NCBI GenBank assembly: GCA_965218795.1
Contig: OZ244653.1
Span: 4,160,001-4,224,000, forward strand
Source: a bacterium
Lineage (GTDB): Bacteria; UBA8248; JACPRG01; G963555815
DNA length: 64,000 nucleotides
Direction of reading: 5' to 3'
In this document: piece after piece, positions 34,846-61,378 of the stretch
Layout: each line of letters opens with the position of its first letter
Numbering within the stretch: position 1 is the first letter of the stretch
Program-made: the position numbers and the translations under genes
Notes under the pieces: generated by a model
Told to the model about the DNA's origin: nothing
The model's input: the letters and a program-made list of their open reading frames with translations, nothing else
Database searches by the model: none

Positions 34846-35460
34846 ATGAGCCTTCTTCGGGAAGAGCCGGTTCCCGCCCGCGAGGGACGGGCGTGGGTCG
34901 TGAAGCGCGGTCAACGAATACGGTTCGTCGACGTCGATGGCGGTCAGATTGGCGACCTTGTGGTATTCAATGCGGACAACATCCGGGAACGCTTCAACCA
35001 ATCCCGCACGAGGTCCAATCAGGGAAAATTTCTGATCTCCACGGGGGATCACCTGTACTCCAAATTCAACAATATCATGCTGACCATCGTCGAGGACACT
35101 TACGGCACTCACGATTTGCAGTACGGGATGTGCAGCCGTTTCGTCTATCAGCGGGCAAAGCACAGCCTAGCCGAGGGTTTCCCGATCGGGGGGCCGCTCG
35201 GCCGGCCCGAGGTCGGCTGCTGGGAGATCCTCACCGAAACCATGAAGCCCTGGGACGTCCCGGCGGAGGACGTGCCCGATCCCCTGAACCTGTTCCAGAC
35301 GTTGGACTTTGATTTCGAAAACGGCCGTTTTGCTCTGGCGGAAGGCCGCAGCAAGCCGGGGGACTATGTCGACATGGTGGCCGAGATGGATGTGATCGCG
35401 GCGCTCAGCGCGTGCCCGGTAACGGGCCATCCGCTCCGGGTGGAGATTTACGAGATCTAG
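34846..35460 (+). CDS. DUF1989 (urea carboxylase-associated family) protein
   Basis: GGQIGDL, HDLQYGMCS, GC, PLNLF, SKPGDYV..AEMD...ALSACP. Confidence 0.85.
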   Translation: MSLLREEPVPAREGRAWVVKRGQRIRFVDVDGGQIGDLVVFNADNIRERFNQSRTRSNQGKFLISTGDHLYSKFNNIMLTIVEDTYGTHDLQYGMCSRFVYQRAKHSLAEGFPIGGPLGRPEVGCWEILTETMKPWDVPAEDVPDPLNLFQTLDFDFENGRFALAEGRSKPGDYVDMVAEMDVIAALSACPVTGHPLRVEIYEI

Positions 35461-35462
35461 GA

Positions 35463-35707
35463 AGGCTGCGGAAAAACGGTTTCGAGGGCCGTGATGACGC
35501 TCCCCGTGTCATCCTGAGGGAGAGGTCAATGACCCAAGGTCACCGACCCGCGCGAGGAATCTTCTTCAAATCAGGGAGCTTTTTATCAACCCGTTCAAAA
35601 ACAACAAGTTTTGCGCTTGAGCGAATTCCCCGCTGCGCTCGGAATGACAATTCGCGAGGTTCTCATTCCGGTCAAAACGCCGGGCCGGCGGAGTTTTTCC
35701 GCAGCCT
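35463..35707. mobile_element. MITE-like element with 15-bp terminal inverted repeats and an internal REP-like pair
   Basis: aggctgcggaaaaac (35463-35477) and gtttttccgcagcct (35693-35707); internal tgtcatcctgagg ... cgctcggaatgaca. Confidence 0.7.
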
Positions 35708-35753
35708 GCTCGGGGCAGGCGGGGCTTGGACGTGAAACGTCGCCGTCGAATGG

Positions 35754-37058
35754 ATGACGACGCGGGATGAGAATTTCGTGAAGCTTACGGTCAATCGTTT
35801 TCCGGTGGATCGAATCGGGGAATCGCAGAATACGGAGTTGGACGGACGCACCCTCGGGATTGATCCGGCCGCGTTGCAAACCCTTCTCCTCCAGGACGAG
35901 CGCATCCGGGGGGTGTCGGTCGATCTCGTCCACCCTGGGGATTCCTGCCGCGTCATCAACATCCTGGACATCTTCGAGCCCCGGATCAAAGTTGACGGCG
36001 CGGGTGCAACGTTTCCCGGGACCTTTCCGGGCATCCTGGGCGATGCGAGCCTCGTCGGGAGCGGCGAGACGAATGTTCTGGAAGGCGCATCCGTCGTCGT
36101 TTGCGGTCCGTTGGACGGGGCCGAGGACGCCTTGCTCGATATGAGCGGGCCGTGCGCGGAACTCAGTCATTTCTCCGCGATCGAGAACGTGGCCGTCACC
36201 CTCCAGCCGGCCGAGGGGCTTCCCCGGGCCGAATTCTCCAAGGCGGCCGTCCAGGCGGGCGTCCGGGCCGCCCACCACCTCGCGGGGGCGACCGAAGGGA
36301 AGTCCGGGGAATCATCGGAAGTGTTTGACCTGCCGCCGGCCCTTCAGGGGGGCGGTGATCCAGGGGCGCTCCCCCGCGTCGGATACGTCTACTTCCTGTA
36401 TTCCCACGGCGATCTGCGGGACATGCTCGTCTACGGCAGAGACACCCGCGATCTGTACCCGACGCTGATCCATCCCAACGAGGTCATGGACGGCGCCGTC
36501 GTGTGGGAGGGCTTCAGCCGCCCGACCATGAACATGACGTATGACCAGCTCAACAACGGTGTCATCCGCTCCCTGTACGACGCGCACGGCAAGACCTTGA
36601 CCTATACCGCCACCATCATCGCCAACCACCACAAACTCTTTGCGGAAAAGGCTCTCCACGCAGAGCAGATCGCGTCCCTGGCGGGGGACGTCCTGGGCGT
36701 CGACGGTGTCGTCATTACGAAGGACGGCGGGGGCCAGGCGGACACCGACCTGATGCTGACCTGCGAGCGGTGCGAGGAGCGCGGCATCCAGACCGTCATC
36801 CTGGCGATGGAGTTCGCGGGCGTCGGCGGATCCTCGGAGGGTTCGCTGGCGGATACGAGTCCGAGGGCCGATGCTATCGTGGCCGTCGGGAACTGCGCGG
36901 AGATGATCGCGCTCCCCGCGATGGAGCGGGTCGTGGGGGGGAAGCGGCTCAAGGATTACGACCGAGACCCCCGGGAGGGGATCGAGGTCCCCTACAACAA
37001 AATGCCCGGCCCCATCAGCTTTTTCGGGGACAATTGCCTGCGCGCCCAGGCCTACTAG
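35754..37058 (+). CDS. Glycine/sarcosine/betaine reductase component B, GrdE/GrdI-like subunit
   Basis: DIFEPRIK, GETNVLEG, LPRVGYVY, PTLIHPNEVMDGA, TY...NN, DLMLTC, DAIVAVGN; alternative GTG start at 35778. Confidence 0.88.
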   Translation: MTTRDENFVKLTVNRFPVDRIGESQNTELDGRTLGIDPAALQTLLLQDERIRGVSVDLVHPGDSCRVINILDIFEPRIKVDGAGATFPGTFPGILGDASLVGSGETNVLEGASVVVCGPLDGAEDALLDMSGPCAELSHFSAIENVAVTLQPAEGLPRAEFSKAAVQAGVRAAHHLAGATEGKSGESSEVFDLPPALQGGGDPGALPRVGYVYFLYSHGDLRDMLVYGRDTRDLYPTLIHPNEVMDGAVVWEGFSRPTMNMTYDQLNNGVIRSLYDAHGKTLTYTATIIANHHKLFAEKALHAEQIASLAGDVLGVDGVVITKDGGGQADTDLMLTCERCEERGIQTVILAMEFAGVGGSSEGSLADTSPRADAIVAVGNCAEMIALPAMERVVGGKRLKDYDRDPREGIEVPYNKMPGPISFFGDNCLRAQAY

Positions 37059-37074
37059 AACGGGAGAATTCATC

Positions 37075-38376
37075 ATGTCCCGCGCACGGGTCGTCCATTA
37101 CGTGAATCAATTCTTCGCCGGCGTCGGCGGCGAGAGCGAGGCCTCCACTGAGCCGTTCTTTGTGGAAGGCCCCGCCGGTCCCGGCAAGCCGCTGGACGCG
37201 ACCCTGGGGGATCAGGCGGACATCGTTCTCACCGCGGCCTGCGGAGACGATTGTTTCGCCGAGCAAAATGAGAAGGCCGTCGCCGTCCTCGTGGACCGCA
37301 TTCGCGACGCCCGCCCCGATCTGTTTTTTTCCGGACCCGCCTTCAACTCCGGGCGGTACGGATACGCCTGCGGCGTGCTGGGCCAACGCGTCGGGCAGGA
37401 ATTGAGCATCCCGGTCGTGTCGGGAATGGCGCCGGAAAATCCCGGTCTGGAGTACCGGAGAGGGGCCTATATCGTCCGGACGGCGGACAACGTCCGGGGG
37501 ATGAAGGACGCCATCGAAGCGATGGCCCGGCTGGGCCTCATGCTCCTGCGCGGGCAAGAACCGGGGGCTTCGGAGGACGAGGGATACTTTCCGCGGGGCT
37601 ACCGGAAGAACGTCCGGGTGGAGCGAAAGGGAACGGAGCGGGCCCTCTCGATGCTGCTGGCCAAGATCCGGGGAGAGGCCTTCGAGACCGAGTTGGTCAT
37701 GCCGAGGTTCGACCGCGTGGCGCCGGCGCCCCCGGTCGGCGACCCGGCGAAGGCGACGATCGCCCTGGTGACAACCGGCGGTCTGGTGCCCAAGGGCAAC
37801 CCCGACCGGCTGCAATCCACCATGGCGACCCGCTTCGGCCGGTACGCGGTCGATGGGGTCGAGGACCTGTCCCCCGCCGATTTCGAGGGGAATCACGGCG
37901 GGTATTCGACGGCCTACGTCAATGAGGATCCCGATCGGCTGGTACCCCTGGACGTCCTGCGGGATCTGGAGCGGGAAGGGCGGGTCGGAAAAGTCCACGA
38001 AGTCTTCTTCACGACGGCGGGTTGCAGCACGTATTACGAAGCCGGGGCCCGGATCGGAGCGGAGATCGCCCGGGAGCTCGAGGAATCCGACGTGGATGCC
38101 GCGCTGATCACCGCGACGTGAGGCACGTGCACCCGCTGCGGGTCAGCGGTCGCAAAAGAGATTGAGAGGGCGGGACTGCCCGCGGCCCTCATCGCCACGC
38201 TCAGCTCCATCGCGCGGAACACAGGGGCCAACCGAATCGTCACCGGGGCGGGCATCCCTCACGTGGTCGGCCATCCGGATCTGGACCCGGCGGAGGAGAA
38301 GGCGTTCCGGCGGAAGGTCGTGGAGCGGGCGATCCAGGCGATCTCTACGGAGGTCGGCGACCAACAGGTTTTCTGA
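37075..38376 (+). CDS. grdB: Glycine/betaine/sarcosine reductase selenoprotein B (GrdB-like); UGA at 38119-38121 read as selenocysteine
   Basis: VVHYVNQFFAG, GPAFNSGRYG, ALVTTGGLVPKGNPD, HGGY; in-frame TGA within T-A-T-U-G-T-C-T-R-C-G; frame continues KEIERAGLP...GANRIV...IPH to a stop at 38376 (433 aa). Confidence 0.9.
38128..38154 (+). promoter_or_regulatory. Candidate bacterial SECIS hairpin
   Basis: tgcac-CCGCTG-cgggt-CAGCGG-tcgca; G-containing loop starts about 18 nt after the UGA. Confidence 0.7.
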
Positions 38377-38400
38377 TCGATCCATACGAAGGGAAAATGG

Positions 38401-39795
38401 GTGAAGGCTGATCTCGTGCTCAAGGGCGGGACGCTCGTCATCCCGGGACAGGGACTCGTCCGGGCCGGTGTGGCGGTTCGGGCGGGGACGATCACCGCAG
38501 TGGCCAAGGAAGCCGCGCTGCCGTCCGCGTCCCGGGTGATTGACGCAAAGGGCCGATTTGTGCTTCCCGGCATCATTGACCCCCATGTCCACTTCGGCCT
38601 GATCAGCGACCTGGGCGAGGATGTCCGGACCGAGACCCGGTCCGCTCTGGCGGGAGGGGTCACGACGGTCGGGGCCTTCATTCGCGAGCCGGAATCCCAC
38701 CTGGAGAGCTTCGACCGGCGGACCCGGATCTTCGAAAGCAACAGCTCGGCCGACATCTTTCCTCATTTCGAGATTGTCTCGGAGGCGCAGGCTCTCGAAA
38801 TTTCCGGGTGCGCGAAGCGGTTCGGCGTCACTTCGTACAAGATGTTCATGTCCGGGATCCCGATCAAAGGCTCGTCCGTCCCGGTGGATGACGGCGTGCT
38901 CCTTGAGTCCTTCCGGCAAATCGCCCGTCTCGGGGCGTCGGGCATCGCCCTCGTCCACGCTGAAAATCCGGATATCGTCATCCACGCCCGGGCGCGCATG
39001 GGGCAACTGAAACCCCGCGGCAATCTGAGGGACTGGGCCGACTGCCATCCGAATCTGGTGGAGGAGGAGGCGGTGCTCCGATCCGTCTATCTGGCGGAGC
39101 AGGCCGGCTGCCGGATCTATATCGTTCACGTCTCGACGGCGGAGGCTCTGGACCGGCTTCGCGCGCTCCGGAAGGACAACCCGGCGTTGTTCGTCGAAAC
39201 GTGCTCGCCCTACCTCACCCTGACGAAACATTCCAAAATGGGCCTTCTGGCCAAGCTCATCCCGCCCCTCCGCGGCCGGGAGGATCTGGAAACTTTGTGG
39301 CGGGGGATGGAAGAGGACGTCGTTGATTCGTTGGGAACGGACAACATTTTTCGCACACGGGCGTACAAGCAGCCGGAGGCCGGGCTCATCGGCGCGAAAG
39401 GCGCCGCGACGTTCCTCGGGGTTCACCTGCCCGTGATGCTCGATGAAGGAGTCCACCGCCGGAGGTTCCCCCTCGAACGGCTGGTCGACAAGATGACGCG
39501 CCAGCCCGCCCGCATCTTCGGTTTGTATCCGAAAAAAGGAACCATCTCTCCCGGCTCGGACGCCGATCTGGTCGTCGTGGACCTGGAGAAGGTGAGAACC
39601 GTCCGCCCCTCCGAGCTTCATACCCGGGCGGACTTCTCTTTATATGAGGGAAAGCGAATCCGAGGCTGGCCGGTGATGACGATCAAGGGCGGAGCCGTGG
39701 CCGTTGAGAACAACGAGATCCTGATCGATCCGGGCTGCGGTAAGGTGTTGAGACGGTCCCTCAAGACGGTCGGAGGACGGAGGATGTCTCGTTGA
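38401..39795 (+). CDS. Cyclic amidohydrolase (dihydropyrimidinase/allantoinase/dihydroorotase family)
   Basis: LPGIIDPHVH, ALAGGVTT, YKMFM, VHAEN, IVHVST, PPLR, GTD, GSDADLV. Confidence 0.9.
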   Translation: MKADLVLKGGTLVIPGQGLVRAGVAVRAGTITAVAKEAALPSASRVIDAKGRFVLPGIIDPHVHFGLISDLGEDVRTETRSALAGGVTTVGAFIREPESHLESFDRRTRIFESNSSADIFPHFEIVSEAQALEISGCAKRFGVTSYKMFMSGIPIKGSSVPVDDGVLLESFRQIARLGASGIALVHAENPDIVIHARARMGQLKPRGNLRDWADCHPNLVEEEAVLRSVYLAEQAGCRIYIVHVSTAEALDRLRALRKDNPALFVETCSPYLTLTKHSKMGLLAKLIPPLRGREDLETLWRGMEEDVVDSLGTDNIFRTRAYKQPEAGLIGAKGAATFLGVHLPVMLDEGVHRRRFPLERLVDKMTRQPARIFGLYPKKGTISPGSDADLVVVDLEKVRTVRPSELHTRADFSLYEGKRIRGWPVMTIKGGAVAVENNEILIDPGCGKVLRRSLKTVGGRRMSR

Positions 39796-42155
39796 ATCCG
39801 GAAGCTTTGACGGAAGAGGCGGCGTATCGTATCGTCGGACGCCGTTTCCCGAAACACGACGGCACGCTGAAAGCCACCGGATCGGCCGTCTACGGAGCGG
39901 ACGTTCTCCCGCCCGGCGCCCTCATCGGGAAGATCCTCCGCAGCCCCTACGCCCACGCAAAACTCCTGCGCATCGACGTCCGGGGGGCGGAATCCCTCCG
40001 AGGCGTGAAGGCCGTGCTCACGGCGAAGGACACCCCCCTCATCCGGTACGGTTTCCGCGAAGGCGCGGATCCGGGGAATACGCGGTTCGCCGATAAGCTC
40101 CCTCTCGCATCGGAGAAGGTCCGCTTCGCCGGTGAGGAGGTTGCCGCCGTGGCCGCCGTCGACGAGGACACCGCCCAAGAGGCCCTGGACCGGATCATTG
40201 TCGATTACGAAGAATTGCCGATCGTGACGTCCCCCCTGGAGGCGATGCGGAATGGCGCTCCGGAACTCCATACGGGCGTCCGGGATAACGTCGCCCTTGA
40301 GATGACGATGGAATTCGGCGATGTCGATCCGGCCCTGGCTGAGGCGGACGTGGTGGCGGACGACGAATTCCACACCTCGCAGGTCGAACCCGTCTGTCTC
40401 GAGACGCAGGGATGCGTGGCGAAGTTCGATTCCGACGGAAGGCTGACGGTCTGGACCTCGATTCAAATGCCGTTCCTGCTTCGGGCCCACTTGGCGAATT
40501 GTCTGGACCTCCCCGAAAACCGGGTGCGCATCATCCGGTCGACCATCGGCGGGGGGTTCGGAAAGCGAATGGAAATGCACGACTTCCATCCCATCTGCGC
40601 GCTCCTGGCGATGAAGACCGGGCGTCCCGTGAGGGTCCTGCTGAGCCGGGAGGAGGATTTCATCGGCTCGCGCACGCGCCATCCCATGGGCATCCGGATG
40701 CGGACGGGCGCGACGAAAGACGGCCGAATTCTCGGACAGGAGATGCGGATCGTCACGGACAACGGCGCCTACATGAGCGCCGCGCCCGGCGTCACGTTCA
40801 CGGCCTCCAACTACAGCATCAGTCTTTACAGCAAGGTGAGGCACTACCGGTTCGACGGGAAGATCGTCTACACGAACAAGAACTACGGCGGCGCCTACCG
40901 CGGCTACGGAAACCCCCAGGGGACGTTCGCGCGGGAGGTTCAGGTGGACATTCTCGCCGAAAAGATCGGCCTCGACCCGGTCGATTTCCGCCTACGGAAC
41001 GTGACGGAAGAGGGCGACGTCTCCGCCTGCGGGTATCGGGTGACGAGTTGCGGGATGCGGGAGTGCATCGAGCGGACCGCGGCGTCCCTGGAATGGACCC
41101 GGAAGAAGAAGGAGGGCCGGCCCGGGCGCGGGGTCGGGATGGCCTGCGCGGTTCATTGCGGCGGCGGGGTCAGGGTATACCGGAACACGGACGCCTGCAG
41201 CGCCCTCGTCAAGATGGAGGACGACGGGACGGTGTCCGTCCTGACCGGGGCGACGGAGATCGGGAGCGGGCAGAACTCCGTGATGGCGGCGGTCGTGGCG
41301 GAAGAGCTGGGCGTCTCGCCCGAGGAAGTCCGGATCATCAGCGAGGATTCGGATGCGGTCCCCTGGGACCTGGGCACCCACGGCAGCCGGATGACCTTCA
41401 TTGCGGGCAACGCAGCCCGGCGCGCCGCAATCGATGTCAAGGAACAGCTGCTCACGGCTGCGGGAGAGATCCTGGAGGCCGACCCCCAGGACCTGGTTGT
41501 TCACGACCGCGAGATTTTCCTTCGCGGCCTGTCCGACCGCCGGGTTTCGCTGACCGACGTCGTCCGGGGCTCCCATTACAATCGGGACAGCCGGATATTC
41601 CTCGGTCGAGGCGTTTACGATCCGCCCCATGAAACGGTCAACCGTGAGACCCATTCGGGTAACATATCGGCGGCCTACAGCTTTTGCGCCCAGGCGGCGG
41701 AGGTGGAGGTCGACCGGGACACGGGCTTCGTCCACGTGCTGCGTCTCGTTGCGGCGCACGACGTCGGATACCCGATCTGCCCCGCAGGGGTGGAGGGTCA
41801 AATCGAGGGCGGCGTCATGCAGGGGATCGGCTACGGCCTGATGGAAGAAATGTTGTTCGACGCCGAATCCGGTCAGCTGCAAAACGGCACCCTGGCGGAT
41901 TACAAACTGCCGACCACCCTCGACGTTCCACCCATCGAGAGTATCATCGTCATCACCCGGGACGGCGAGGGGCCGTTCGGCGCCAAGGGGTTTGCCGAGA
42001 CCACGATTACGCCCACTGCGGCCGCCATCGCCAATGCCGTCTATGACGCCGTGGGGGTGAGGATCAGGGAACTCCCGCTGACCTCCGAGAAAATCTATCA
42101 TGCCCTGAACGGCGGGCCGGAATCGAGGCGGGGAGGAGGGGACGCGCGTGGCTGA
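39792..42155 (+). CDS. Xanthine dehydrogenase family molybdopterin-binding large subunit
   Basis: KATGSAVY, RSPYAHA, IGGGFG, AYRGYGNPQ, GQIEGG, GPFGAKG.AE. Confidence 0.93.
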   Translation: MNPEALTEEAAYRIVGRRFPKHDGTLKATGSAVYGADVLPPGALIGKILRSPYAHAKLLRIDVRGAESLRGVKAVLTAKDTPLIRYGFREGADPGNTRFADKLPLASEKVRFAGEEVAAVAAVDEDTAQEALDRIIVDYEELPIVTSPLEAMRNGAPELHTGVRDNVALEMTMEFGDVDPALAEADVVADDEFHTSQVEPVCLETQGCVAKFDSDGRLTVWTSIQMPFLLRAHLANCLDLPENRVRIIRSTIGGGFGKRMEMHDFHPICALLAMKTGRPVRVLLSREEDFIGSRTRHPMGIRMRTGATKDGRILGQEMRIVTDNGAYMSAAPGVTFTASNYSISLYSKVRHYRFDGKIVYTNKNYGGAYRGYGNPQGTFAREVQVDILAEKIGLDPVDFRLRNVTEEGDVSACGYRVTSCGMRECIERTAASLEWTRKKKEGRPGRGVGMACAVHCGGGVRVYRNTDACSALVKMEDDGTVSVLTGATEIGSGQNSVMAAVVAEELGVSPEEVRIISEDSDAVPWDLGTHGSRMTFIAGNAARRAAIDVKEQLLTAAGEILEADPQDLVVHDREIFLRGLSDRRVSLTDVVRGSHYNRDSRIFLGRGVYDPPHETVNRETHSGNISAAYSFCAQAAEVEVDRDTGFVHVLRLVAAHDVGYPICPAGVEGQIEGGVMQGIGYGLMEEMLFDAESGQLQNGTLADYKLPTTLDVPPIESIIVITRDGEGPFGAKGFAETTITPTAAAIANAVYDAVGVRIRELPLTSEKIYHALNGGPESRRGGGDARG

Positions 42156-42513
42156 GATCCTCGTCGCCCCGGCCTCGGAGTTCGAGGAAGGCGGGTGCCG
42201 GATCATCGCGCAGGACGGTCTGGAGGTCGGCGTCTTCCTTGTGGGCGGCGAGTTCCACGCCTTCGAGAACGAATGCCCGCATCAAGGAGGACCCGTCTGC
42301 CAGGGCAGGCTGTTCAGGCAGGTGGAGGAAATCCTGGGCGAGGACAGGAGCAGTCTCGGCGAAAGATTCTCCGAAGAAAAGGTGCGCATCGTCTGTCCCT
42401 GGCACGGATATGAATTTGACGTCAAGACCGGCGGGCATCCGGCCGACGGACGGATCCGACTGCGGAAGTTCGAGGTGGAGGTACGCGACGGAGCGGTTTT
42501 CGTGATTCTCTAG
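42148..42513 (+). CDS. Rieske [2Fe-2S] ferredoxin
   Basis: CPHQGGP ... CPWHG motifs. Confidence 0.93.
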   Translation: MAEILVAPASEFEEGGCRIIAQDGLEVGVFLVGGEFHAFENECPHQGGPVCQGRLFRQVEEILGEDRSSLGERFSEEKVRIVCPWHGYEFDVKTGGHPADGRIRLRKFEVEVRDGAVFVIL

Positions 42514-42562
42514 AATCAACCCGCGGGGTCACGGTCAAGCAGGGTACAGCGGGAACCGAAGG

Positions 42563-43789
42563 ATGGAGTCAAAGTCGATGGAAACGAAGGTCATCGGGTC
42601 CACGGACCTCGAGCCGTTCCATCACCGCTCGGATACGCGGGAGATTCTCGCCCACGCGAAGCGGCAGGCGGAGGATCGAAACTACGCGGACTACGTCATC
42701 ATGGACGTGGATTCCCACCACTCCGACAATGTGTCCTGGAAGGCGGTGGTCCGCTACATCGAAGACCCGGTCGTTCGTGCGGCCGCCGAGGAGTATCACG
42801 CCAAGGTGGCCTCTCCCCCCTACGGTGTCGTGAACAACATCATGTACTACCAGGACGTGGGCGGGCGCATCCAGCATCAGGCGGGGTGGCGGGAGCCCGT
42901 GGACGACACCGGCCATCACGCGGACGTGACGATTATCCGACGCGCCATCGAGTGCATGGGCCTGGACTATATGGTCGTCTTCCCCACCAAGCTGCTGGAT
43001 CTGGGCAAACATCCGGTCGCAAGGACCGAGGCCCTGTTGGCGTACGCCTATAACCGCTGGCTGGTCGAGAACATCCTGTCGGTCGACCCGCGGATCAAAT
43101 CGCTCCTCTACCTGCCGATCAGTGTGCCGGAAGAGTCCGTCCGGATCGTCGAAGAATTTTCAGAGCACCCGGGCGTGATCGGGTTCATGGTGACGAGCAC
43201 CCGGAACAAGCCGGTTTATGACAATGTCTTCATGCGGCTGTATGCAACGCTGGAGGAGCGGGGCATGCCCCTGGCCTTCCACGGCGGCTATTCCTGGGGC
43301 GAGGAGCCCGTCATGGCCCAAATGAACAAGTTCATGGGCTACCACTTGGTGGGCTTCGTGCTGTGGAACCTGATCCACCTGATCAACTGGGTGACCAACG
43401 GCCTCCCGGAGCGGTTTCCCCGGCTGAAGGTCATCTGGATTGAGAGCGGTCTGGCCTGGTTGCCGTTCGTGATTCAGCGCCTGGACAACGAGTACATGCG
43501 CCGCGTCTCCGAGGCTCCGCTGCTCAAGCGGCGCCCCAGCGAGTACATCCGCGAGATGTATTTTTCCTCACAACCCATGGAACGGGAGAACCTGGAGGCG
43601 CTTGAGCTGACCTTCAAGATGATCAACGCGGAAACTCAGCTCATGTACGCCTCGGATTGGCCGCACTGGGATTTCGACCTGCCCAGCGCGATCTTCGATC
43701 TCCCTTTCCTGGGAGAGAGGGCGCGGCGGAACATCCTCGGGGAGAACGCGCTGAAACTGTTCAACCTGGATAGGCCGGACGGAAAATAG
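42563..43789 (+). CDS. Amidohydrolase-2 fold metalloenzyme (possibly a dinuclear oxygenase)
   Basis: DVDSHH, AYNRW, FH, ERFPRL...ESG, SDWPHWDFD, ILGENA. Confidence 0.88.
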   Translation: MESKSMETKVIGSTDLEPFHHRSDTREILAHAKRQAEDRNYADYVIMDVDSHHSDNVSWKAVVRYIEDPVVRAAAEEYHAKVASPPYGVVNNIMYYQDVGGRIQHQAGWREPVDDTGHHADVTIIRRAIECMGLDYMVVFPTKLLDLGKHPVARTEALLAYAYNRWLVENILSVDPRIKSLLYLPISVPEESVRIVEEFSEHPGVIGFMVTSTRNKPVYDNVFMRLYATLEERGMPLAFHGGYSWGEEPVMAQMNKFMGYHLVGFVLWNLIHLINWVTNGLPERFPRLKVIWIESGLAWLPFVIQRLDNEYMRRVSEAPLLKRRPSEYIREMYFSSQPMERENLEALELTFKMINAETQLMYASDWPHWDFDLPSAIFDLPFLGERARRNILGENALKLFNLDRPDGK

Positions 43790-43928
43790 ACGCGCGTGGG
43801 ATATGGGTGGGCGGGTTCGCCGGTAACGGAGGAGTCTGCGCCCGCCGTCGTGGGCCATCCGATTCCCTGAGTCGGACGAAGCCCGGGCTTCGATCCATCC
43901 ACCGACGGGGGAAGGAGGATAAGACCGC

Positions 43929-44717
43929 ATGATGGACCCAGTATCCCAGCGGCCGGGAATCCGTTGCATCGACCTCAGCGTTCCGCTCCAGAATTACTCC
44001 TACGACCGGGACGAAGCCAAGATTTTTTATTGGGACCACCGGGAAGGGGGACGGCGGATCTCCAGGAAAATCGGCTTTGACCCCGCTCTTCTGCCCGACG
44101 GGATGGCTCTGGCGGCGGAAGAGGTGGAGCTGAACACCCATTCCGGCACCCACATGGATTCTCCGTGGCATTTCGGTCCCACGTGCGAGGGCCAACCCTC
44201 GCGCAGGGCGGATCAGATCCCCCTGGCCTGGTGCTTCTCGGACGGCGTACTCCTCGACATGACCCATAAGCGGGCGGGACACCTCATCACGGCGGAGGAC
44301 ATGGACGAGGCGGTGGGAAAGATTGGATATGAGATCAAGCCGTTCGATATCGTCCTCATCCGGACCGACGCCACGAAGCTCTATGAAAGCCCGGATTTTC
44401 TGGTGAGCCAGCCGGGCATGGGGCGCGAGAGCACGCTCTGGCTTCTGGACCGGGGGGTGAAGATCGCGGGCATCGACGCCTGGAGCTTCGACCGGCCGCT
44501 GACGGAGATGATGAAGGAGCTCAAGGCGGGCGACACAGCGGCCTACTGCCCGGCCCATTTTGTCGGAAAAGAGCGCGAGTACTGCCACGTGGAGAAACTG
44601 GCCAACCTGGACATGATCCCCAGAGCATTCGGGTTCAAAGTGGCGGTATTTCCCATCAAAATCGAACGCTCCAGCGCCGGCTGGGTGCGGGCGGTGGCGA
44701 TCTTCGACGAGGACTGA
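43929..44717 (+). CDS. Cyclase family (kynurenine formamidase-like) metal hydrolase
   Basis: HSGTHMDSPWH, GIDAW, HVEKL, WVRAVA. Confidence 0.92.
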   Translation: MMDPVSQRPGIRCIDLSVPLQNYSYDRDEAKIFYWDHREGGRRISRKIGFDPALLPDGMALAAEEVELNTHSGTHMDSPWHFGPTCEGQPSRRADQIPLAWCFSDGVLLDMTHKRAGHLITAEDMDEAVGKIGYEIKPFDIVLIRTDATKLYESPDFLVSQPGMGRESTLWLLDRGVKIAGIDAWSFDRPLTEMMKELKAGDTAAYCPAHFVGKEREYCHVEKLANLDMIPRAFGFKVAVFPIKIERSSAGWVRAVAIFDED

Positions 44718-44731
44718 TTCCGGGAGGCGGG

Positions 44732-45361
44732 ATGAACCTCAAGGAGCGGCGCGTGGAGGGGATGGACCGAGTCATGGCGATGACTGAAATTCGGACCTGC
44801 GCCGCCCAGAGCAAGTCCCAGGGCGGCGTGATCTGCGTCGTGAAAGGCGGCCGGCTCGTGGAGGTCCTGCCCGACCCCGATCACCCCAACGGTCCTCACG
44901 AGGTCGATCTGTATCCGAAGAGCCGGGTCCTGCCGGAGCTTCTCTATCACTCCGAATGGCTGAAGCGTCCCGTGCGCTGGTCCCGGCTGGGAGAGCATCT
45001 CTGGGATGAGGCTTTGGAGTCCATCGCGCAGAAGCTCCTGACCATCCAAGAGGAATCCGGCCCGGAGGCGGTGGATTTCCACCGAGCCTTGCCGGGGGGC
45101 GCCGCTTCAAGCGATTACAACCCCTGGTTTCACCGGCTGGCCTTCACCTTCGGAAGTCCGAACGCCTCCTCCGCGATGTACATCTGCAACTGGCACAAGG
45201 ACTTTGCGTCCCGTTACACCTACGGGAGCGGGGTCGCCGAGCCCGACTTCGACCGGCCGCGGGCGCTCATCCTGGGGGCCGGGGGCGGGCCGGACGCGCT
45301 CCTTGCGCTTTACCATGATTCCGATGATCTGTATCCTTGCAATTCTGCGAAAATTGATTAA
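44732..45361 (+). pseudogene. Truncated, degenerate DMSO-reductase-family molybdopterin oxidoreductase N-terminus
   Basis: DPDHPNG, WDEALESIA, GPEAV, FGSPN, ICNWHKD; Fe-S cysteines eroded; only about 200 aa. Confidence 0.75.
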
Positions 45362-45589
45362 GAAGCATTGGGGCATTCCTCATCGGCCCAGGAAGCCTTC
45401 ATCTCCCTTCGGGCGTTCTTCAGAAGGGGGAATCGTTTTTCTTTTTTGCAGAAATAACAGGATGATTTGGAGTGGATTGCGGGAGGCGAAGGTCTTCCCG
45501 CAATTTTGCCGTCCGGCGGCAGTGTTGGCTGATTTCGAGTGCGGTTTGACGGGTCTATCGCCCGTCCCGACGAAATCCAACAGGAGTTG

Positions 45590-47786
<2,197 letters not shown>

Positions 47787-47898
47787 GAGTCGCTCCGCGG
47801 AACCAGGCGGAATCACCCCCTGCTTTCCAATTCTGGATCCGATACAGAATTCAAGCCGGCGCCGGCTCAATCATGACAGTTCAGTCTGACGCGTTGGG

Positions 47899-48753
47899 TT
47901 GCGAAACGTGCGGGAAATCCAGGCCGTCCAGATCACCGAAGCCGTAAAAGACATGTGCATCCAGGCGAATCGCGTTTTGGGTGAAGACATGCTGGCGGCA
48001 TTGGCGGACTCCGTGAAAAAGGAGGAATCCCCGGCCGGAATCATCGTTCTCGAACAGCTTTCAGAGAATGCAGCGCTTGCGTCCGAGCGGGAGATGCCCC
48101 TTTGTCAGGACACCGGATTTTCGGTGTTTTTCGTGGATGTGGGGCAGGATGCCCACATCACGGGCGGAAACCTGGAAGACGCGATCAATGAAGGCGTGCG
48201 GCGGGGCTATCGGGACGGGTTGCTCAGGGCTTCCATCGTCGAGCATCCTTTTTCGGACCGCCTGAACACGGGAGACAACACGCCGGCGGTGATCCATACC
48301 CGAATGGTTCCGGGAGATTCCCTTCGAATCGTTTTTGACGCCAAAGGAGGCGGAAGCGAAAACCAAAGCCAGCTCCGGATGCTCGAACCGGCAGATGGCC
48401 GGAAAGGCGTGCGGGATTTTATCATCCAGGCGGCCGTCAACGCGGGTCCGAGCGCCTGCCCGCCTTTGATTGTGGGCGTGGGTATCGGCGGGACCTTCGA
48501 AAAATGCGCCTTTCTTGCCAAGCAGGCTCTCTTGCGGGAGCTGGGTGATCCGAATCCCGATCCGGAAGTGGCCGAGCTGGAGACGGAATGCCTGAAGGCC
48601 ATCAATGATTCCGGCGTCGGACCGATGGGGTTCGGCGGCCGCGTGACGGCCCTGGCCGTCCACGTCGAGACATATCCCTGCCACATCGCGAGCCTGCCCG
48701 TGGCAGTGAACGTTGAGTGTCATTCCCACCGCCACCGGAACGTCACGCTCTGA
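47899..48753 (+). CDS. Fe-S fumarate hydratase alpha subunit
   Basis: CQDTG, NTGDNTP, KGGGSEN, ACPP, CHIASLPV; TTG start uncertain. Confidence 0.92.
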   Translation: MRNVREIQAVQITEAVKDMCIQANRVLGEDMLAALADSVKKEESPAGIIVLEQLSENAALASEREMPLCQDTGFSVFFVDVGQDAHITGGNLEDAINEGVRRGYRDGLLRASIVEHPFSDRLNTGDNTPAVIHTRMVPGDSLRIVFDAKGGGSENQSQLRMLEPADGRKGVRDFIIQAAVNAGPSACPPLIVGVGIGGTFEKCAFLAKQALLRELGDPNPDPEVAELETECLKAINDSGVGPMGFGGRVTALAVHVETYPCHIASLPVAVNVECHSHRHRNVTL

Positions 48754-48763
48754 TGGAGGGGCC

Positions 48764-49327
48764 ATGTCCGAAGCAAAGCGTTTGATCGTCCCCTTATCCA
48801 ATCAAGACGTCGAGGGCCTGAGCGCCGGCGAGCAAGTCCTGCTGTTTGGGTCGCTCATCACGGCGCGCGACGCGGCTCACAAGCGGCTCGTGGAACTGGT
48901 GGACCGCGGTGAACCGCTCCCTGTCGATCTGGCCGGACAGGTGATATACTTTGTCGGGCCGACTCCGCCCAAGCCCGGAGAAGCCATTGGTTCGGCCGGT
49001 CCCACGACCGCCTCCCGGATGGACAGGTATTCCTCTCAGTTGATGGCTCTTGGAATGAAGGGAATGATCGGCAAGGGTTCGCGGGGTCCGGAAGTGGTCG
49101 AGGCCATGAAAAAGTATCGATGTGTGTACTTTGCGGCCATGGGCGGTGCGGGAGCCTTGCTATCCGGGAGTATCAAATCCAGCGAGGTTCTGGCCTGCGA
49201 TGATTTGGGAACGGAAGCCATCCGCCGTCTGGAAGTGGAGGGGTTTCCTGTCGTGGTGGCAAACGACGTCCTTGGCAATGACCTGTTCCAAATGGGAAAG
49301 GCGGCCTACGCCCGGAAAAGCGGATAG
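48764..49327 (+). CDS. Fe-S fumarate hydratase beta subunit
   Basis: TARDAAHKR, GPTTASRMD, MIGKG. Confidence 0.92.
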   Translation: MSEAKRLIVPLSNQDVEGLSAGEQVLLFGSLITARDAAHKRLVELVDRGEPLPVDLAGQVIYFVGPTPPKPGEAIGSAGPTTASRMDRYSSQLMALGMKGMIGKGSRGPEVVEAMKKYRCVYFAAMGGAGALLSGSIKSSEVLACDDLGTEAIRRLEVEGFPVVVANDVLGNDLFQMGKAAYARKSG

Positions 49328-49358
49328 ACGGGGCGCGGAGGAGTAAGGAGAAATTCAC

Positions 49359-50111
49359 ATGGCGGATGCCACAGTAACAATCGGAGGGGAAGGCTTTGGC
49401 GCCACCCAGCGTCGCGACGCCTGGTGGATACAGCCTCTGGTGACTGGACTCGTATTGGCGATGTTCGGCGTCTATGCCACCTGGGCGGCGTTCCAAGGCG
49501 AAAACTACTACGCCGAGCCCTACCTGTCTCCATTTTATTCTCCCTTGATTCTTGTGGACTGGTGGCCTTTATCGCCGGCCATTCTCATCCTTTGGATGCC
49601 CCTGGGGTTTCGGTTGACCTGCTATTACTATCGAAAGGCCTATTACCGGGCCTATTTTCTGGATCCTCCCGCCTGCGCCGTGGGAGAGAGAAAAGGCAGG
49701 TACTATGTGGGCGAGCGGGCCTTCCCCTTTGTGTTGCAGAACCTGCATCGGTACTTTTTCTACCTGGCCGTCATCGTCGTGGCTTTTCTTTGGTATGACA
49801 CGGTGGAGGCATTCCACTTCAAGGACGGCGTCGGCGTTGGGTTGGGAACGCTGGTCTTGTTGGCCAATGTTGTCTTGCTGTCGTTTTATACATTTTCCTG
49901 CCACAGCTTCCGGCATCTCATCGGAGGCAAGCTGGACTGCATGTCGTGCACCCATCGCGGGGGAGCGAGAGCCCACGCGTGGAAAGGGGTGAGCGCGATC
50001 AATCACCACCACATGTTCTGGGCCTGGACCAGCTTGGTCATGGTGGGTCTGGCGGATTTATATGTTCGTTTGGTGGCCTCGGGGGTCATTCAGGACGTGA
50101 GGTTCTTCTGA
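49359..50111 (+). CDS. Succinate dehydrogenase membrane anchor (mycobacterial Sdh1 Rv0249c-like)
   Basis: PYLSPFYSP, FRLTCYYYRKAYYR, QNLHRYF, SCHSFRH; directly upstream of sdhA. Confidence 0.8.
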   Translation: MADATVTIGGEGFGATQRRDAWWIQPLVTGLVLAMFGVYATWAAFQGENYYAEPYLSPFYSPLILVDWWPLSPAILILWMPLGFRLTCYYYRKAYYRAYFLDPPACAVGERKGRYYVGERAFPFVLQNLHRYFFYLAVIVVAFLWYDTVEAFHFKDGVGVGLGTLVLLANVVLLSFYTFSCHSFRHLIGGKLDCMSCTHRGGARAHAWKGVSAINHHHMFWAWTSLVMVGLADLYVRLVASGVIQDVRFF

Positions 50112-51901
50112 TGCAGAATATCGAAATCCACGAACATGACATCATTGTGATCGGAGCGGGAGGCGCCGGCCTCCGGGCGGCCATCGAGGCGTCCGCCCAG
50201 GGGGTATCGGTCGGGATGGTTTGCAAGTCCCTTTTGGGGAAAGCCCATACGGTGATGGCCGAGGGCGGCATTGCGGCGGCCCTGGCCAGCGTAGACCCGG
50301 AAGACAACTGGCAGACTCACTTCCGCGACACCATGCGTGGCGGCAAAATGCTGAATCAGTGGGACATGGCGGAGGTCCATGCCCAAGAGGCGCCGGACCG
50401 GGTGAAAGAACTCCAGGAATGGGGAGCCCTGTTCGATCGAACGCCGTCGGGCGGGATTCTTCAGCGCGCCTTCGGGGGCCACCGCTGGCGGCGGCTTGCC
50501 CATGTGGGTGACCGGACGGGACTGGAAATGATTCGAACCCTCCAGGACCGCGGCGTCCATCAGGGTGTCGACGTCTATATGGAATGCACGGTGACCGACT
50601 TGGTCAAGGATGGAGACCGGATTTCAGGCGCGTTGGCCTACTGGCGGGAGAGCGGGCGGTTTGTCCTGTTCAAGGCCAAAGCGGTCGTGGTGGCCACCGG
50701 TGGGATCGGGATGGCGTACAAGATCACGTCCAACTCCTGGGAGTACACAGGCGACGGTACAGCGTTGGGTTACCGGGCAGGTGCGGACCTCATCGATATG
50801 GAGTTCGTCCAGTTCCACCCGACCGGCATGATTTGGCCTCCGGGCGTCCAGGGTATTCTCGTCACCGAGGGCGTCCGTGGAGACGGAGGGCTTCTCAAGA
50901 ACAACAGAGACGAACGGTTCATGTTCAATTACATTCCTGACATGTTCCGCTCGGAAACCGCGGAGACGGAGGAAGAGGCCGACCGTTGGCTGGCTGGAGA
51001 CAGGAACGCGCGCCGGACGCCGGATCTTTTGACGCGGGATGTCGTCGCGCGAGCCATCCTGAACGAGGTGAAAGAAGGTCGTGGGAGCGAACATGGAGGC
51101 GCTTACCTGGACATCTCGCACAAGCCCGCCGAATACGTCAAGAGAAAGCTCCCCAGCATGTTCATGCAGTTCGGTGAACTCGCGGATATCGATATCACGC
51201 AACAGCCGATGGAAGTCGGCCCGACCACCCATTACATCATGGGCGGACTTCGCGCAGAGGGGAGATCCACAGCGAGCACCGTTCCGGGTCTGTTCAGCGC
51301 GGGAGAGGCCACCGGCGGACTTCATGGAGCCAACCGCCTGGGCGGCAATTCCCTGTCCGATTTGCTCGTCTTCGGGAGGTTGGCGGGATTGGCGGCCGCT
51401 GAATTCGCCCAGGGCATCGAATCCAGCCCCAACGTGGATTCGGGGGACGTGGAACGCGCCATGACGGAGGCTCTCGCACCGTTTGGCCGTCCTGACGGAG
51501 AGAATCCCTTCCAAATCCATCAAGAGCTTCGAGAGAGCATGCAGGACAACGTCGGGATCATCCGCAACGAGGAGGGGCTGAACCGCGGTCTCGAGAAACT
51601 CAATGAATTCAGGGAGCGGGCGTCTCGGGCCGGGGCGCAAGGGTCCCGGATGTTCAACCCGGGCTGGCATCTTTGCATCGATCTCAAAAACATGATCGAC
51701 AACTGTGAGGTCATCGCGTTATCGGCAACCCTGAGAAAGGAAAGCCGTGGCGCCCACACCCGTGACGACTACCCGGACACCTCCGAAGAAGAAGGAAAGG
51801 TGAACACCATCATCAGACAGGAAGACGGGGAGATGAAAGCCAGTACGGCCCCCCTCCCTGGAATGCCCGAAGAACTCCAAAAGCTCTTCGAGGAGGAATA
51901 G
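50111..51901 (+). CDS. sdhA: Succinate dehydrogenase/fumarate reductase flavoprotein
   Basis: GAGGAG, AHTVMAEGG (covalent FAD His), QFHPT, HGANRLGGNSL, ESRGAH. Confidence 0.95.
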   Translation: MQNIEIHEHDIIVIGAGGAGLRAAIEASAQGVSVGMVCKSLLGKAHTVMAEGGIAAALASVDPEDNWQTHFRDTMRGGKMLNQWDMAEVHAQEAPDRVKELQEWGALFDRTPSGGILQRAFGGHRWRRLAHVGDRTGLEMIRTLQDRGVHQGVDVYMECTVTDLVKDGDRISGALAYWRESGRFVLFKAKAVVVATGGIGMAYKITSNSWEYTGDGTALGYRAGADLIDMEFVQFHPTGMIWPPGVQGILVTEGVRGDGGLLKNNRDERFMFNYIPDMFRSETAETEEEADRWLAGDRNARRTPDLLTRDVVARAILNEVKEGRGSEHGGAYLDISHKPAEYVKRKLPSMFMQFGELADIDITQQPMEVGPTTHYIMGGLRAEGRSTASTVPGLFSAGEATGGLHGANRLGGNSLSDLLVFGRLAGLAAAEFAQGIESSPNVDSGDVERAMTEALAPFGRPDGENPFQIHQELRESMQDNVGIIRNEEGLNRGLEKLNEFRERASRAGAQGSRMFNPGWHLCIDLKNMIDNCEVIALSATLRKESRGAHTRDDYPDTSEEEGKVNTIIRQEDGEMKASTAPLPGMPEELQKLFEEE

Positions 51902-51904
51902 TCG

Positions 51905-52639
51905 ATGCGCGAAGCCGTTCTCAGGGTTTTTCGAGGCGACGCCCAAGGCGGGGAGGAAAAGGAGTATCGAATCCCGGTCGAAGAGGGGATGGTTGTATTG
52001 GATGCCATCCACTACATCCAGGGACACTTCGAGCCGGATTTGGCCGTCCGCTGGAACTGCAAGGCTGCCAAGTGCGGTTCCTGCAGCGCGGAGGTCAACG
52101 GCAAGCCCAGTCTGATGTGTAAGACCCGAATGGATGATTTCCCCGAGGAAGAATCGATCACGGTCTACCCCATGAAGGCGTTTCCCGTGATCAAGGATCT
52201 GGTGACCGACGTATCGTGGAACTTCGAGGTCAACAAGAAGATACAGGCCTTCACTCCAGCTCCGGACACCGATTGGAAGATGTACCAGCCCGATGTGGAC
52301 CGGGTTCAGGAGTTCAGGAAGTGCATCGAATGCTTCCTCTGCCAGAACGTATGCCACGTGATCCGGACCCATGACCAAAAACCGCAATTTTCCGGTCCGC
52401 GGTTCTATGTTCGCGTGGCGGGTTTGGAGATGCACCCCTTGGACACCGCGTCCAGGCTGGAGTATTTGAAGGACGAGGCAGGGATAGGATTTTGCAACAT
52501 CACCAAGTGCTGCACGGAGGTCTGCCCGGAAGAGATCGAGATTACCGATAACGCCATTATTCCGCTGAAAGAGCGGGTGGTGGACAGGTACTATGATCCG
52601 GTCCTCAAGTTCTTCAGGAAATTGTTGGGAACATGGTGA
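51905..52639 (+). CDS. sdhB: Succinate dehydrogenase/fumarate reductase Fe-S subunit
   Basis: CKAAKCGSC, CIECFLCQNVC, CNITKCCTEVCP. Confidence 0.95.
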   Translation: MREAVLRVFRGDAQGGEEKEYRIPVEEGMVVLDAIHYIQGHFEPDLAVRWNCKAAKCGSCSAEVNGKPSLMCKTRMDDFPEEESITVYPMKAFPVIKDLVTDVSWNFEVNKKIQAFTPAPDTDWKMYQPDVDRVQEFRKCIECFLCQNVCHVIRTHDQKPQFSGPRFYVRVAGLEMHPLDTASRLEYLKDEAGIGFCNITKCCTEVCPEEIEITDNAIIPLKERVVDRYYDPVLKFFRKLLGTW

Positions 52640-52869
52640 TCGGCTTCATCGGGCTGGCATCGTCGAATTCGCGCTTCGCATGATGTGTTCTTGAATTGCG
52701 TCATGACGTGGCCCTGTCTGTGCGGTTGGTTGCGTCGGGCGCTGACGGTGGGCAGGGCTGATCCGCGCGTGGATTCCTCATGGCTCGGCGGGTCATTCGA
52801 GGGGTGGGTTTTTGACCGTTCTGTCGTGCCGCCGGAACCGGGAAATCATGTCTTTTTCAAGGTCGAACC

Positions 52870-54033: not shown

Positions 54034-54311
54034 CCAAGAGCCATGAATTGTCAGGAAGGGCATGTTGGGGGCAACGGGCCTCCGCGATTTCTCGGCGTTC
54101 GGTGGCGCCGTAGCCGCGCGCAATCAGGGCATTGTGTATCGATAACCCATGTGCGCGTCGAAAAGTGAGCGGGCCGCGCCTGTTCCCCTGACCCCCATTA
54201 GAACTTTCCCGTCCCCTCGCGAAATGAAGATTTTACTGGTGCGCGCGCGCCTGACAGAAAGCCCTCCCCCACAGACATCAAAAGGTTCTATAGAGGACAA
54301 GAGAGGTTTCC

Positions 54312-55205: not shown

Positions 55206-55494
55206 GGGTTGAATCTCAGTCTGCATTGAATATATTGGAGTGATACGGAATTCGGATTGGTGTAACGGATGGAAGGACAGGTCTTCCGGCAGGTCTTCCG
55301 GACTGGCTCGGCAGTGCGCGGGGGCTCTCTTCAGCGGTTCTCGCCGATTGAATGAATTCCCCGCATATGTTAATTTGATCGAATACCTGGAGGCAGGAGG
55401 GCGGATGAGGAGACCCAAGTCCTCATCGTTCGGGCCGGCGCTGGGGAAAAGTTGATTTCTCTCTCAAGAAAACCCGAAAGAGGATTCCCTGGAG

Positions 55495-61275: not shown

Positions 61276-61378
61276 GGATATCCCCGGTGGAAACGGTCGG
61301 GGGCATTGGTCCGGTACTCGCCGGACCCGGCGTCGGGAACGACATCGGTGAGGGAATCTGCGACGACGCGGCGCCGCC

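Follow-up and report, generated by a model that had tools for sequence, protein, structure and literature searches.

A 64-kb window of a bacterial genome of the UBA8248 lineage (contig OZ244653.1, positions 4,160,001 to 4,224,000) contains nine co-oriented genes at 34846-45361 (positions without a contig prefix are positions in this window), among them a grdE-grdB pair that encodes a component B of the glycine reductase (Grd) type. We read this pair as an auxiliary component B that feeds GrdA and GrdC shared with a second locus and that works with its neighbours, a hydantoinase-type hydrolase and a xanthine dehydrogenase (XDH)-family enzyme, and we put the probability of this reading at roughly 0.55. 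The cluster probably supplies central metabolism with a two-carbon fragment released when a nitrogen ring is broken down. Pairs that act as an auxiliary component B have been described before; what appears to be new, in the literature covered, is a respiring host that lacks GrdD and the kinases and carries such a pair inside an operon that also encodes a hydantoinase, an XDH and an ARO-type monooxygenase. All nine open reading frames were confirmed and lie as an earlier note on this DNA had placed them.

The window holds no grdA, grdC, grdD or thioredoxin gene, as the earlier note had observed when it proposed a stand-alone component B. At the level of the genome, the pair does not stand alone. 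The source genome (one contig, C1; 98.9% complete, 4409 called genes) carries a second operon, grdE-grdB-grdA-grdC, on the minus strand at C1:759,004-763,571 (L007:9005-13572), in which grdB and grdA both encode selenocysteine (Sec) and whose grdE and grdB are the closest paralogs of the window pair. Its GrdA (C1:760,402-760,866) has the CxxU motif and scores 186 bits against the NF040748 cut-off of 130; its GrdC scores 530 bits against the NF040746 cut-off of 450. A genome-wide search for the remaining parts found the selA, selB, selC and selD functions and did not find grdD. A TrxB 48% identical to that of a clostridial reference locus (L081) and six WCxxC proteins are also encoded, none adjoining grd genes. 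The same pattern extends across the class: full-length GrdB occurs in 36 of 51 genomes, of which 35 have grdC (33 over the cut-off, 2 partial) and 33 have grdA, and the sole GrdB-bearing genome with neither is 87% complete. All four class genomes with the window cluster carry both grdC and grdA, the grdA of G006 being cut at a contig end.

The window and operon copies are 59-60% identical in GrdE and GrdB alike (59% for GrdE), and trees place them close together. The GrdB tree was built by a quick method on 70 of 114 rows, 44 near-duplicates having been dropped by hand, and the GrdE tree with FastTree on 43 of 96 rows, both without a formal clade test. A single clade (support 95 for B and 98 for E) unites the window-type copies of the source genome and its relatives G001, G004 and G006, and it nests with the operon-linked copies in a family-specific clade (support 100 in each tree); the window pair therefore arose by duplication within the family. 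Both proteins lie outside the canonical glycine, sarcosine and betaine reductase clades (31 rows with support 99 for B; 17 rows with support 98 for E). Between four window-type and four operon-type copies there are 6 fixed differences in B, all conservative, and 15 in E, some of them in conserved motifs, a distribution that fits the same catalysis with altered specificity.

Further grd-like genes lie elsewhere in the genome and the class. Just upstream of the second operon, which itself has no grdD or thioredoxin gene, lie an F420/LLM-type reductase gene, a PF02317 opine-dehydrogenase-family gene and a Mo oxidoreductase gene. At C1:2,444,672-2,446,600 (L008:8673-10600), two tandem genes encode short GrdB/PrdB-like selenoproteins with a U-P-I-C motif. 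Of the two, the second is intact (~299 aa) and the first seems to carry a frameshift and a premature stop codon; both converge on an XDH-type three-gene cluster. Short GrdB/PrdB-like matches of this kind occur in most class genomes. Three genomes (G035, G048 and G050; for example L067) have a second complete operon, grdA-grdC-grdE-grdB, adjoining an IclR regulator and a TauE exporter, and orphan E/B pairs at L057 and L061-L064 sit beside a DUF255/DsbH thioredoxin-like gene, often with ATP-dependent hydantoinase, CoA ligase and MmgE/PrpD genes.

The window grdB (37075-38376, plus strand; PF07355 at 437 bits over the stretch that precedes the TGA) reads in frame past a TGA at 38119-38121 to give a 433-aa protein with the sequence TAT-U-GTCTRC, that is, Sec349 in a U-x-x-C-x-x-C motif. 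The readthrough of 84 codons is 68-76% identical to orthologues, and a stop stands at the Sec position in all 114 GrdB-family rows extracted. Directly 3′ of the TGA, at 38122-38159, lies a SECIS-like hairpin (Rfam SECIS_4, 28.2 bits, E 0.0066, not reaching the gathering score of 38), and a near-identical stem follows the TGA of the operon paralog. With selA, selB, selD and tRNA-Sec all present in the genome, the TGA is a selenocysteine codon, which bears out the earlier note. Contigs from two other studies cover 35657-46069 and differ from it by 10 and 20 substitutions, with 0 gaps, so neither the TGA nor the truncation of the last gene of the cluster is an assembly error.

Profile scores place the pair in the component B family in the broad sense, below the cut-offs of its named members. 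GrdB passes the TIGR01918 subfamily cut-off (389 bits against 65) and falls below the equivalog cut-offs of GrdB, GrdF and GrdH, having been scored only on the 348 aa before the TGA. The PrdB model gives 42 bits, and the protein has the full 433-aa GrdB length rather than the short PrdB form. GrdE (35754-37058, plus strand; PF09338, 360 bits) reaches 303 against 780 for the GrdG equivalog and 148 against 675 for the FarE model. In a 96-row GrdE alignment it has EGFSRPTMN where canonical proteins have GNCVSACDKN, and the pyruvoyl-forming cysteines are absent; because this site is missing, free glycine and sarcosine are unlikely substrates. A PDB sequence search with GrdB gave no match at E 0.1, and an ESM Atlas query returned only PF09338 clusters.

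The system also appears to lack GrdD. GrdD carries the cysteine that releases acetyl phosphate. None of the 51 class genomes has a GrdD over the cut-off, the weak matches being PlsX, and a custom GrdD profile run over six frames of the source genome recovered only PlsX (E 5e-6). Acetate kinase (ackA) was found in one of the 51 genomes, not the source genome, from which pta is also absent. With Ack nearly absent from the class and Pta absent from this genome, acetyl phosphate would have no obvious use. Outside the class, in 36 genomes hand-picked from 80 loci (mostly non-clostridial, many of them incomplete metagenome-assembled genomes (MAGs)), 30 have GrdC over the cut-off, and 25 of these 30 have no GrdD match, including Binatia, Actinomycetota and Deferrimicrobiaceae; the clostridial and Synergistota controls do have one.

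Changes in GrdC match this distribution. Among 56 GrdC sequences, related to one another and so not independent, a tail of 47-57 residues accompanies D[MI]NQ and KLG[ML]N in every one of the 32 whose locus has grdD, whereas all 24 without grdD have DRY[QN] and KLGMK, and 23 of these 24 end in a tail of 14-25 residues. These matching sequence changes support a true loss of grdD. The clostridial C-terminal helix of GrdC (for example at L081:11399-14124), found only with GrdD, resembles the N-terminal helix of GrdD in pattern; from the co-occurrence, tail and helix may form a docking pair. Six loci of Deferrimicrobiaceae-like or Syntrophomonadaceae origin (L111, L122, L126, L128, L098 and L088) have a D-less GrdC beside a GrdE of the canonical pyruvoyl type, and L111 also has a thioredoxin gene. 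A structure model of the source-genome GrdC, computed from an alignment (pLDDT 90.7), matches OleA, FabH and thiolase, and its Cys244 aligns with their catalytic cysteines.

The neighbours of the pair are conserved with it. The order grdE-grdB-hydantoinase-XDH is unbroken in five of five loci, at 68-86% identity: the source genome, G001, G004 and G006, which make up 4 of the 51 class genomes, and the metagenome contig L166. Within the window these genes are tightly packed, with 16 nt between grdE and grdB, 24 nt between grdB and the hydantoinase gene, and overlaps of 4 nt (hydantoinase/XDH) and 8 nt (XDH/Rieske). The cyclic amidohydrolase at 38401-39795 (plus strand, as are all the genes of the cluster) is of the hydantoinase/dihydropyrimidinase/allantoinase type; its best PDB match is the L-hydantoinase 1gkr (E 8e-63), its metal-ligand motifs are intact, and it stays below the equivalog cut-offs for dihydropyrimidinase (257 of 393 bits), allantoinase (236 of 358) and ErtD (191 of 650). 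Its orthologues (73-84% identical) occur in exactly these four class genomes. The XDH-family molybdopterin large subunit at 39792-42155, for which a gene caller trained on the source genome prefers the alternative start 39807, has syntenic orthologues at 74-86% identity; its best PDB match is 4-hydroxybenzoyl-CoA reductase alpha, below the NCBIfam cut-off of that family, and no XDH FAD or 2Fe-2S subunit is encoded in the window.

The other members of the cluster vary. The Rieske and ARO genes, the cyclase gene and the DUF1989 gene are each found in four of the five loci, and the Mo oxidoreductase gene is full or nearly so in three and truncated in the source genome. In G004 and G006 the cluster is longer, with genes for an upstream XDH subunit, a 2Fe-2S subunit, UbiD, an NMT1/THI5 binding protein and, in G006, a deaminase. 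The genes pdxA and icd flank the block in the source genome and G001 and adjoin each other in G006, which indicates that the block was inserted as a unit. In the low-GC relatives L049, L050 and L066, neighbours were identified by tblastn only. The UbiD, deaminase and NMT1 genes in G004 and G006 had suggested an anaerobic purinolysis pathway, which we did not adopt: the host is aerobic, neither the window nor L166 has these genes, and UbiD has 40 paralogs.

A third, long-branch B pair in G004 and G006, unrelated to the other two (L053, G004:C2:292,000-311,999; L055, G006:C17), with the order grdB-grdE and 41%/33% identity to the window pair, lies among a hydantoinase, an LLM reductase, a CN-hydrolase, a cyclase, UbiD, XDH, a metallo-beta-lactamase, an isochorismatase, RidA, a BMP binding protein and DUF1989. 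From this gene content, the cluster is a candidate hydantoin or creatinine-type route. As a null for such company, none of 4365 17-gene windows of the source genome outside the locus holds at least four of hydantoinase, XDH, cyclase, DUF1989 and UbiD, and none of 88 centred on other catabolic genes does.

The gene at 42563-43789 encodes a PF04909 protein that the earlier note had labelled amidohydrolase-2. It carries D50-S-H52 and D365-W-P-H-W-D370, and its best PDB matches (8sm7, 8sm9 and 8sm6) are all AROs (amidohydrolase-related dinuclear monooxygenases), the group that, in PMC13154177, is defined by an N-terminal D-x-H and a C-terminal D-x-P-H-x-D/E motif. Its gene follows that of a Rieske ferredoxin (42148-42513; PF00355), and PMC10811679 likewise describes a Rieske gene preceding the ARO gene and O2-dependent N-dealkylation of a surrogate substrate by SfbO. 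On these sequence grounds the PF04909 gene is part of a predicted monooxygenase system with the Rieske ferredoxin, its likely electron donor, and not a ring-opening hydrolase. The amidohydrolase-2 label thus needs to be replaced, and ring opening by this protein, as an O2-dependent monooxygenase type, is probably wrong. The source genome has nine ARO-like genes (the closest 63-68% identical), eight of them with a Rieske gene within two genes, and the locus thereby flags a family of misannotated monooxygenases with nine copies in this genome alone. One ARO-type gene also follows grdC in G004 and G006. About 56 NMT1-like genes are present in the source genome as well, beside about 73 XDH-like and 40 UbiD-like ones.

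How the parts might work together can be set out on the pattern of the known enzymes. In the Grd mechanism (PMC10298544, PMC13188914), Sec displaces the leaving group from C2 and the carboxymethyl group is handed on to GrdA, after which an acetyl thioester arises on component C. The window GrdE/GrdB would be a second, substrate-specific component B of a GrdD-less system, with the shared carrier GrdA and component C (GrdC) supplied from the operon at C1:759,004-763,571. Sec349 would attack C2 of X-CH2-COO-, whose leaving group, going by the known mechanism, would need no Schiff base; the carboxymethyl group would pass to GrdA (C39-x-x-U42); GrdC would cleave the selenoether and hold the acetyl group on its thiolase/FabH-type Cys244; and thioredoxin with TrxB would re-reduce GrdA. 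From GrdC the acetyl group could go to CoA and so feed the tricarboxylic acid (TCA) cycle of a respiring cell, or leave as free acetate. Because GrdD, Ack and Pta are missing, transfer from Cys244 to CoA is the simplest exit, and we give this hand-over an even chance.

The invariant hydantoinase and XDH neighbours suggest that the substrate comes from ring opening. The XDH-type enzyme would hydroxylate an N-heterocycle and the hydantoinase-type enzyme would open it, releasing an N-substituted glycine of the ureido-, amidino-, guanidino- or quaternary-N type, such as hydantoate, formiminoglycine or a creatine-like compound; we propose this substrate class tentatively, at somewhat less than even odds. 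The ARO/Rieske pair (O2-dependent C-H hydroxylation or N-dealkylation), the cyclase, DUF1989 and the Mo oxidoreductase would be accessory. Taken in full, the picture would be of an O2-respiring bacterium in which a GrdD-less, modular selenium reductase turns N-substituted glycines from opened heterocycles directly into acetyl-CoA on a FabH-like GrdC, with duplicated B/E pairs in different catabolic operons acting as interchangeable substrate modules. This composite we regard as rather doubtful.

Several observations weigh against even the narrower reading of an auxiliary component B that works with its neighbours. The cluster occurs in a single family (2 genera, 4 of 51 class genomes and 1 of 3 metagenome loci), where its loci are kin rather than independent cases, and it is eroding: the Mo oxidoreductase is truncated in the source genome, the cyclase, DUF1989 and the Mo oxidoreductase are absent in G001, and Rieske/ARO are deleted in L166. 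In a genome with 73 XDH-like, 40 UbiD, 23 hydantoinase-like and 12 DUF1989 genes among 4409, some co-location is expected, and the null for co-location was computed on this genome, not on G004 or G006. The window encodes no carbamoylase, transporter or XDH small subunit, and every neighbour protein scores below the cut-offs of families whose substrate is known. Other B pairs in the class adjoin other genes (DUF255 thioredoxins, CoA ligases, MmgE/PrpD). Loss of GrdD is separable from loss of the pyruvoyl site, as Deferrimicrobiaceae and L088 have a D-less GrdC with a canonical NCVSAC GrdE. A ureido nitrogen, moreover, is a poor leaving group.

Some of these points would be accommodated if the pair fed GrdA/GrdC with a substrate unrelated to its neighbours (betaine-like, a sulfonium, an arsonium or a halo-acetate taken up as such), the neighbours being a co-travelling patch of catabolic paralogs. 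The large paralog families of this genome, the loss or breakage of five of the nine genes in some relatives and the restriction to one family all agree with this, and an E subunit without the pyruvoyl site is typical of betaine and fluoroacetate reductases (PMC10838667). It does not readily explain why E, B, hydantoinase and XDH stay intact in five of five loci at 68-86% identity with tight spacing, in a block that moved as a unit, or why a further, independent B pair in G004 and G006 is surrounded by the same five families. The window E motif also differs from the betaine-type motif in L083 and L089, which we take to be betaine reductase loci. We consider an unrelated substrate unlikely, though of the alternatives it deserves the most weight. 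The original proposal was a repurposed B that works alone and breaks a C-N or C-S bond; such an enzyme could act reductively in the manner of D-proline reductase PrdA/PrdB and be re-reduced straight through its UxxCxxC. In its favour are the lack of A and C at the locus, the retained UxxCxxC, an outside genome (the MAG G067) that has B and E and in which no grdC was found, and the precedent that PrdA/PrdB function without A and C (PMC3091704, PMC10298544). It is improbable in view of grdA and grdC in the source genome and in all four cluster-bearing genomes, and of a B that differs from the A/C-linked form by only 6 conservative fixed changes and keeps the full 433 aa rather than the short PrdB form.

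A selenium peroxidase that shields the neighbouring oxygenase and Mo hydroxylase from peroxide would suit an aerobic host with O2-using neighbours, and the title of a paper cited in PMC3091704 reports peroxidase activity of GrdB stabilised by GrdE. Such a role leaves unexplained the conserved, type-specific changes in E, the class-wide retention of A and C and the persistence of B in L166 without Rieske/ARO, and we think it very improbable. Equally remote is an ordinary glycine or sarcosine reductase that makes acetyl phosphate, with housekeeping PlsX replacing GrdD. GrdA and GrdC do pass their NCBIfam cut-offs and the genome has no GrdD homologue besides PlsX, but the pyruvoyl cysteines are missing, the pair falls outside the canonical clade, GrdC is without the tail found in all GrdD-linked forms, and no ackA or pta is there to use the product. 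Several points support the earlier note: the pair is outside the canonical clade, has no pyruvoyl site, retains its catabolic gene company in relatives and belongs to a host that respires and has neither ackA nor pta. With grdA and grdC in the genome, independence from A and C is not supported. A complete grdA/grdC/grdD set elsewhere, canonical placement and a neighbourhood not kept in relatives had been named as evidence to the contrary; grdA and grdC do exist elsewhere, but grdD is absent, and the pair groups apart from the canonical enzymes, in a neighbourhood that relatives keep.

Enzymes of the glycine reductase type count as anaerobic Stickland enzymes that make acetyl phosphate, the label that annotation pipelines would give these genes. 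Across the class and in several other lineages, no subunit or kinases for acetyl phosphate are present and GrdC has changed to match, which points to a different product. The locus adds conserved enzyme neighbours that bare grdC-A-E-B operons lack, and with them a short list of candidate substrates. Should the composite picture set out above be true, glycine-reductase chemistry would gain a new product, a new class of substrate and a new physiological setting.

Of the remaining features of the cluster, the DUF1989 protein (UAAP/Tdm-like fold; 34846-35460) scores 160 bits for PF09347, below the UAAP1, UAAP2 and Tdm cut-offs, and is one of 12 paralogs. It is a variable member, absent in G001 and with a 78% identical orthologue upstream of grdE in G004, G006 and L166; the label carboxyguanidine deiminase was set aside, the scores being far below the UAAP cut-offs. 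The spacer that follows (35461-35753) contains a dispersed repeat element with 6 further matches in the genome (72-83% identity), a 45-nt portion of which is replaced in strains X7 and X8. Downstream of the ARO gene lie a cyclase-family metal hydrolase of the isatin hydrolase/kynurenine formamidase type (43929-44717; PF04199, weak PDB matches to isatin hydrolases), absent in G001, and the remnant of a DMSO-reductase-family Mo oxidoreductase (44732-45361). As the earlier note had recognized, the last is truncated: its first 180 aa are 68% identical to a 798-aa orthologue, and no orthologous copy of the remainder was found elsewhere in the genome, identifying it as a decayed fragment of a protein that has 798 aa in relatives.

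Pyruvate dehydrogenase, TCA-cycle and succinate dehydrogenase genes flank the cluster in the window, and cytochrome oxidase subunit I (COX1) is encoded in the genome, in line with the respiratory-type metabolism noted earlier. The TCA block at 45539-58385 runs icd-mdh-fumarase-sdh-sucCD-2-oxoacid:ferredoxin oxidoreductase, and its succinate dehydrogenase has, by inspection, a small three-helix-type membrane subunit instead of the usual C/D pair. GmrSD-type restriction genes occupy a lower-GC stretch at 11758-13570, and an Mrr-type nuclease gene lies at 60727-61278. A promoter and terminator scan gave counts at chance level (2 against 2.0 and 8 against 8.1). In two metatranscriptome runs from one study, seven short contigs of near-identical sequence (152-275 nt, depth 2-5) fall on grdE, grdB, xdh, ARO and icd; with no silent-stretch control and a possible origin from DNA, they are not counted as evidence of expression.

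In the literature covered (open-access and bioRxiv main texts, and titles and abstract starts), we found no account of a GrdD-less system or of this cluster, nor any of a respiring host that lacks GrdD and the kinases and carries a B pair in a hydantoinase/XDH/ARO operon. A selenoprotein preprint describes GrdB as anaerobic (10.1101/2022.07.06.499078), and a table passage of PMC13326102 counts UBA8248 among the selenoprotein-richest lineages with no mention there of Grd. The oxygenase resembles AibH2/AibG, SfbO and PtmU3 (PMC10811679, PMC13154177) in its D-x-H and D-x-P-H-x-D motifs, its adjoining Rieske gene and its best PDB matches; it differs in belonging, as predicted from sequence, to a separate subfamily, with 9 paralogs in the source genome. 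The longer version of the cluster in G004 and G006 is similar at the family level to the pterin/lumazine cluster of Cupriavidus sp. LA-1 (PMC12391406), with a Mo hydroxylase, an amidohydrolase-fold enzyme, a UbiD decarboxylase and a deaminase; the available portion of that paper mentions no Grd genes.

Other routes place ring opening upstream of a selenium reductase, again with likeness at the family level. In Tissierella creatinophila, a cyclic amidohydrolase opens the ring on the way from creatinine and N-methylhydantoin to sarcosine reductase (PMC5364220), and in clostridial purine fermentation cyclic amidohydrolases and XDH precede glycine reductase (PMC3519856). In those pathways sarcosine or glycine is released by a carbamoylase or formiminotransferase and goes to a pyruvoyl-type B that works with GrdD; these steps are not in the window, whose E cannot form the pyruvoyl group.

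The clostridial glycine, sarcosine and betaine reductases themselves consist of GrdA, one or more pairs (GrdB with GrdE, GrdF with GrdG or GrdH with GrdI), GrdC with GrdD, and Trx/TrxB (reference loci L081 and L072). The system described here shares their E-B gene pair, Sec in UxxCxxC with a SECIS, the CxxU of GrdA, a GrdC over the equivalog cut-off and several B pairs per A/C set. It differs in having no GrdD, AckA or Pta, a tail-less GrdC with other signature residues, an E without the NCVSAC cysteines in a separate clade, an aerobic host, and catabolic hydrolase and hydroxylase neighbours instead of trx and grdX. Additional B pairs that supply a shared A/C system are reported in PMC10838667, where betaine GrdI and fluoroacetate FarE are likewise without the processing cysteines. 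FarE/FarB of Cloacibacillus porcorum, from the same paper, offers a parallel: a stand-alone B pair with its own accessory genes, a cysteine-less E, a substrate other than glycine, and A and C encoded elsewhere. In that organism, an anaerobe, FarB is without the CxxC that the window GrdB keeps, and the neighbours are a transporter and a radical SAM enzyme.

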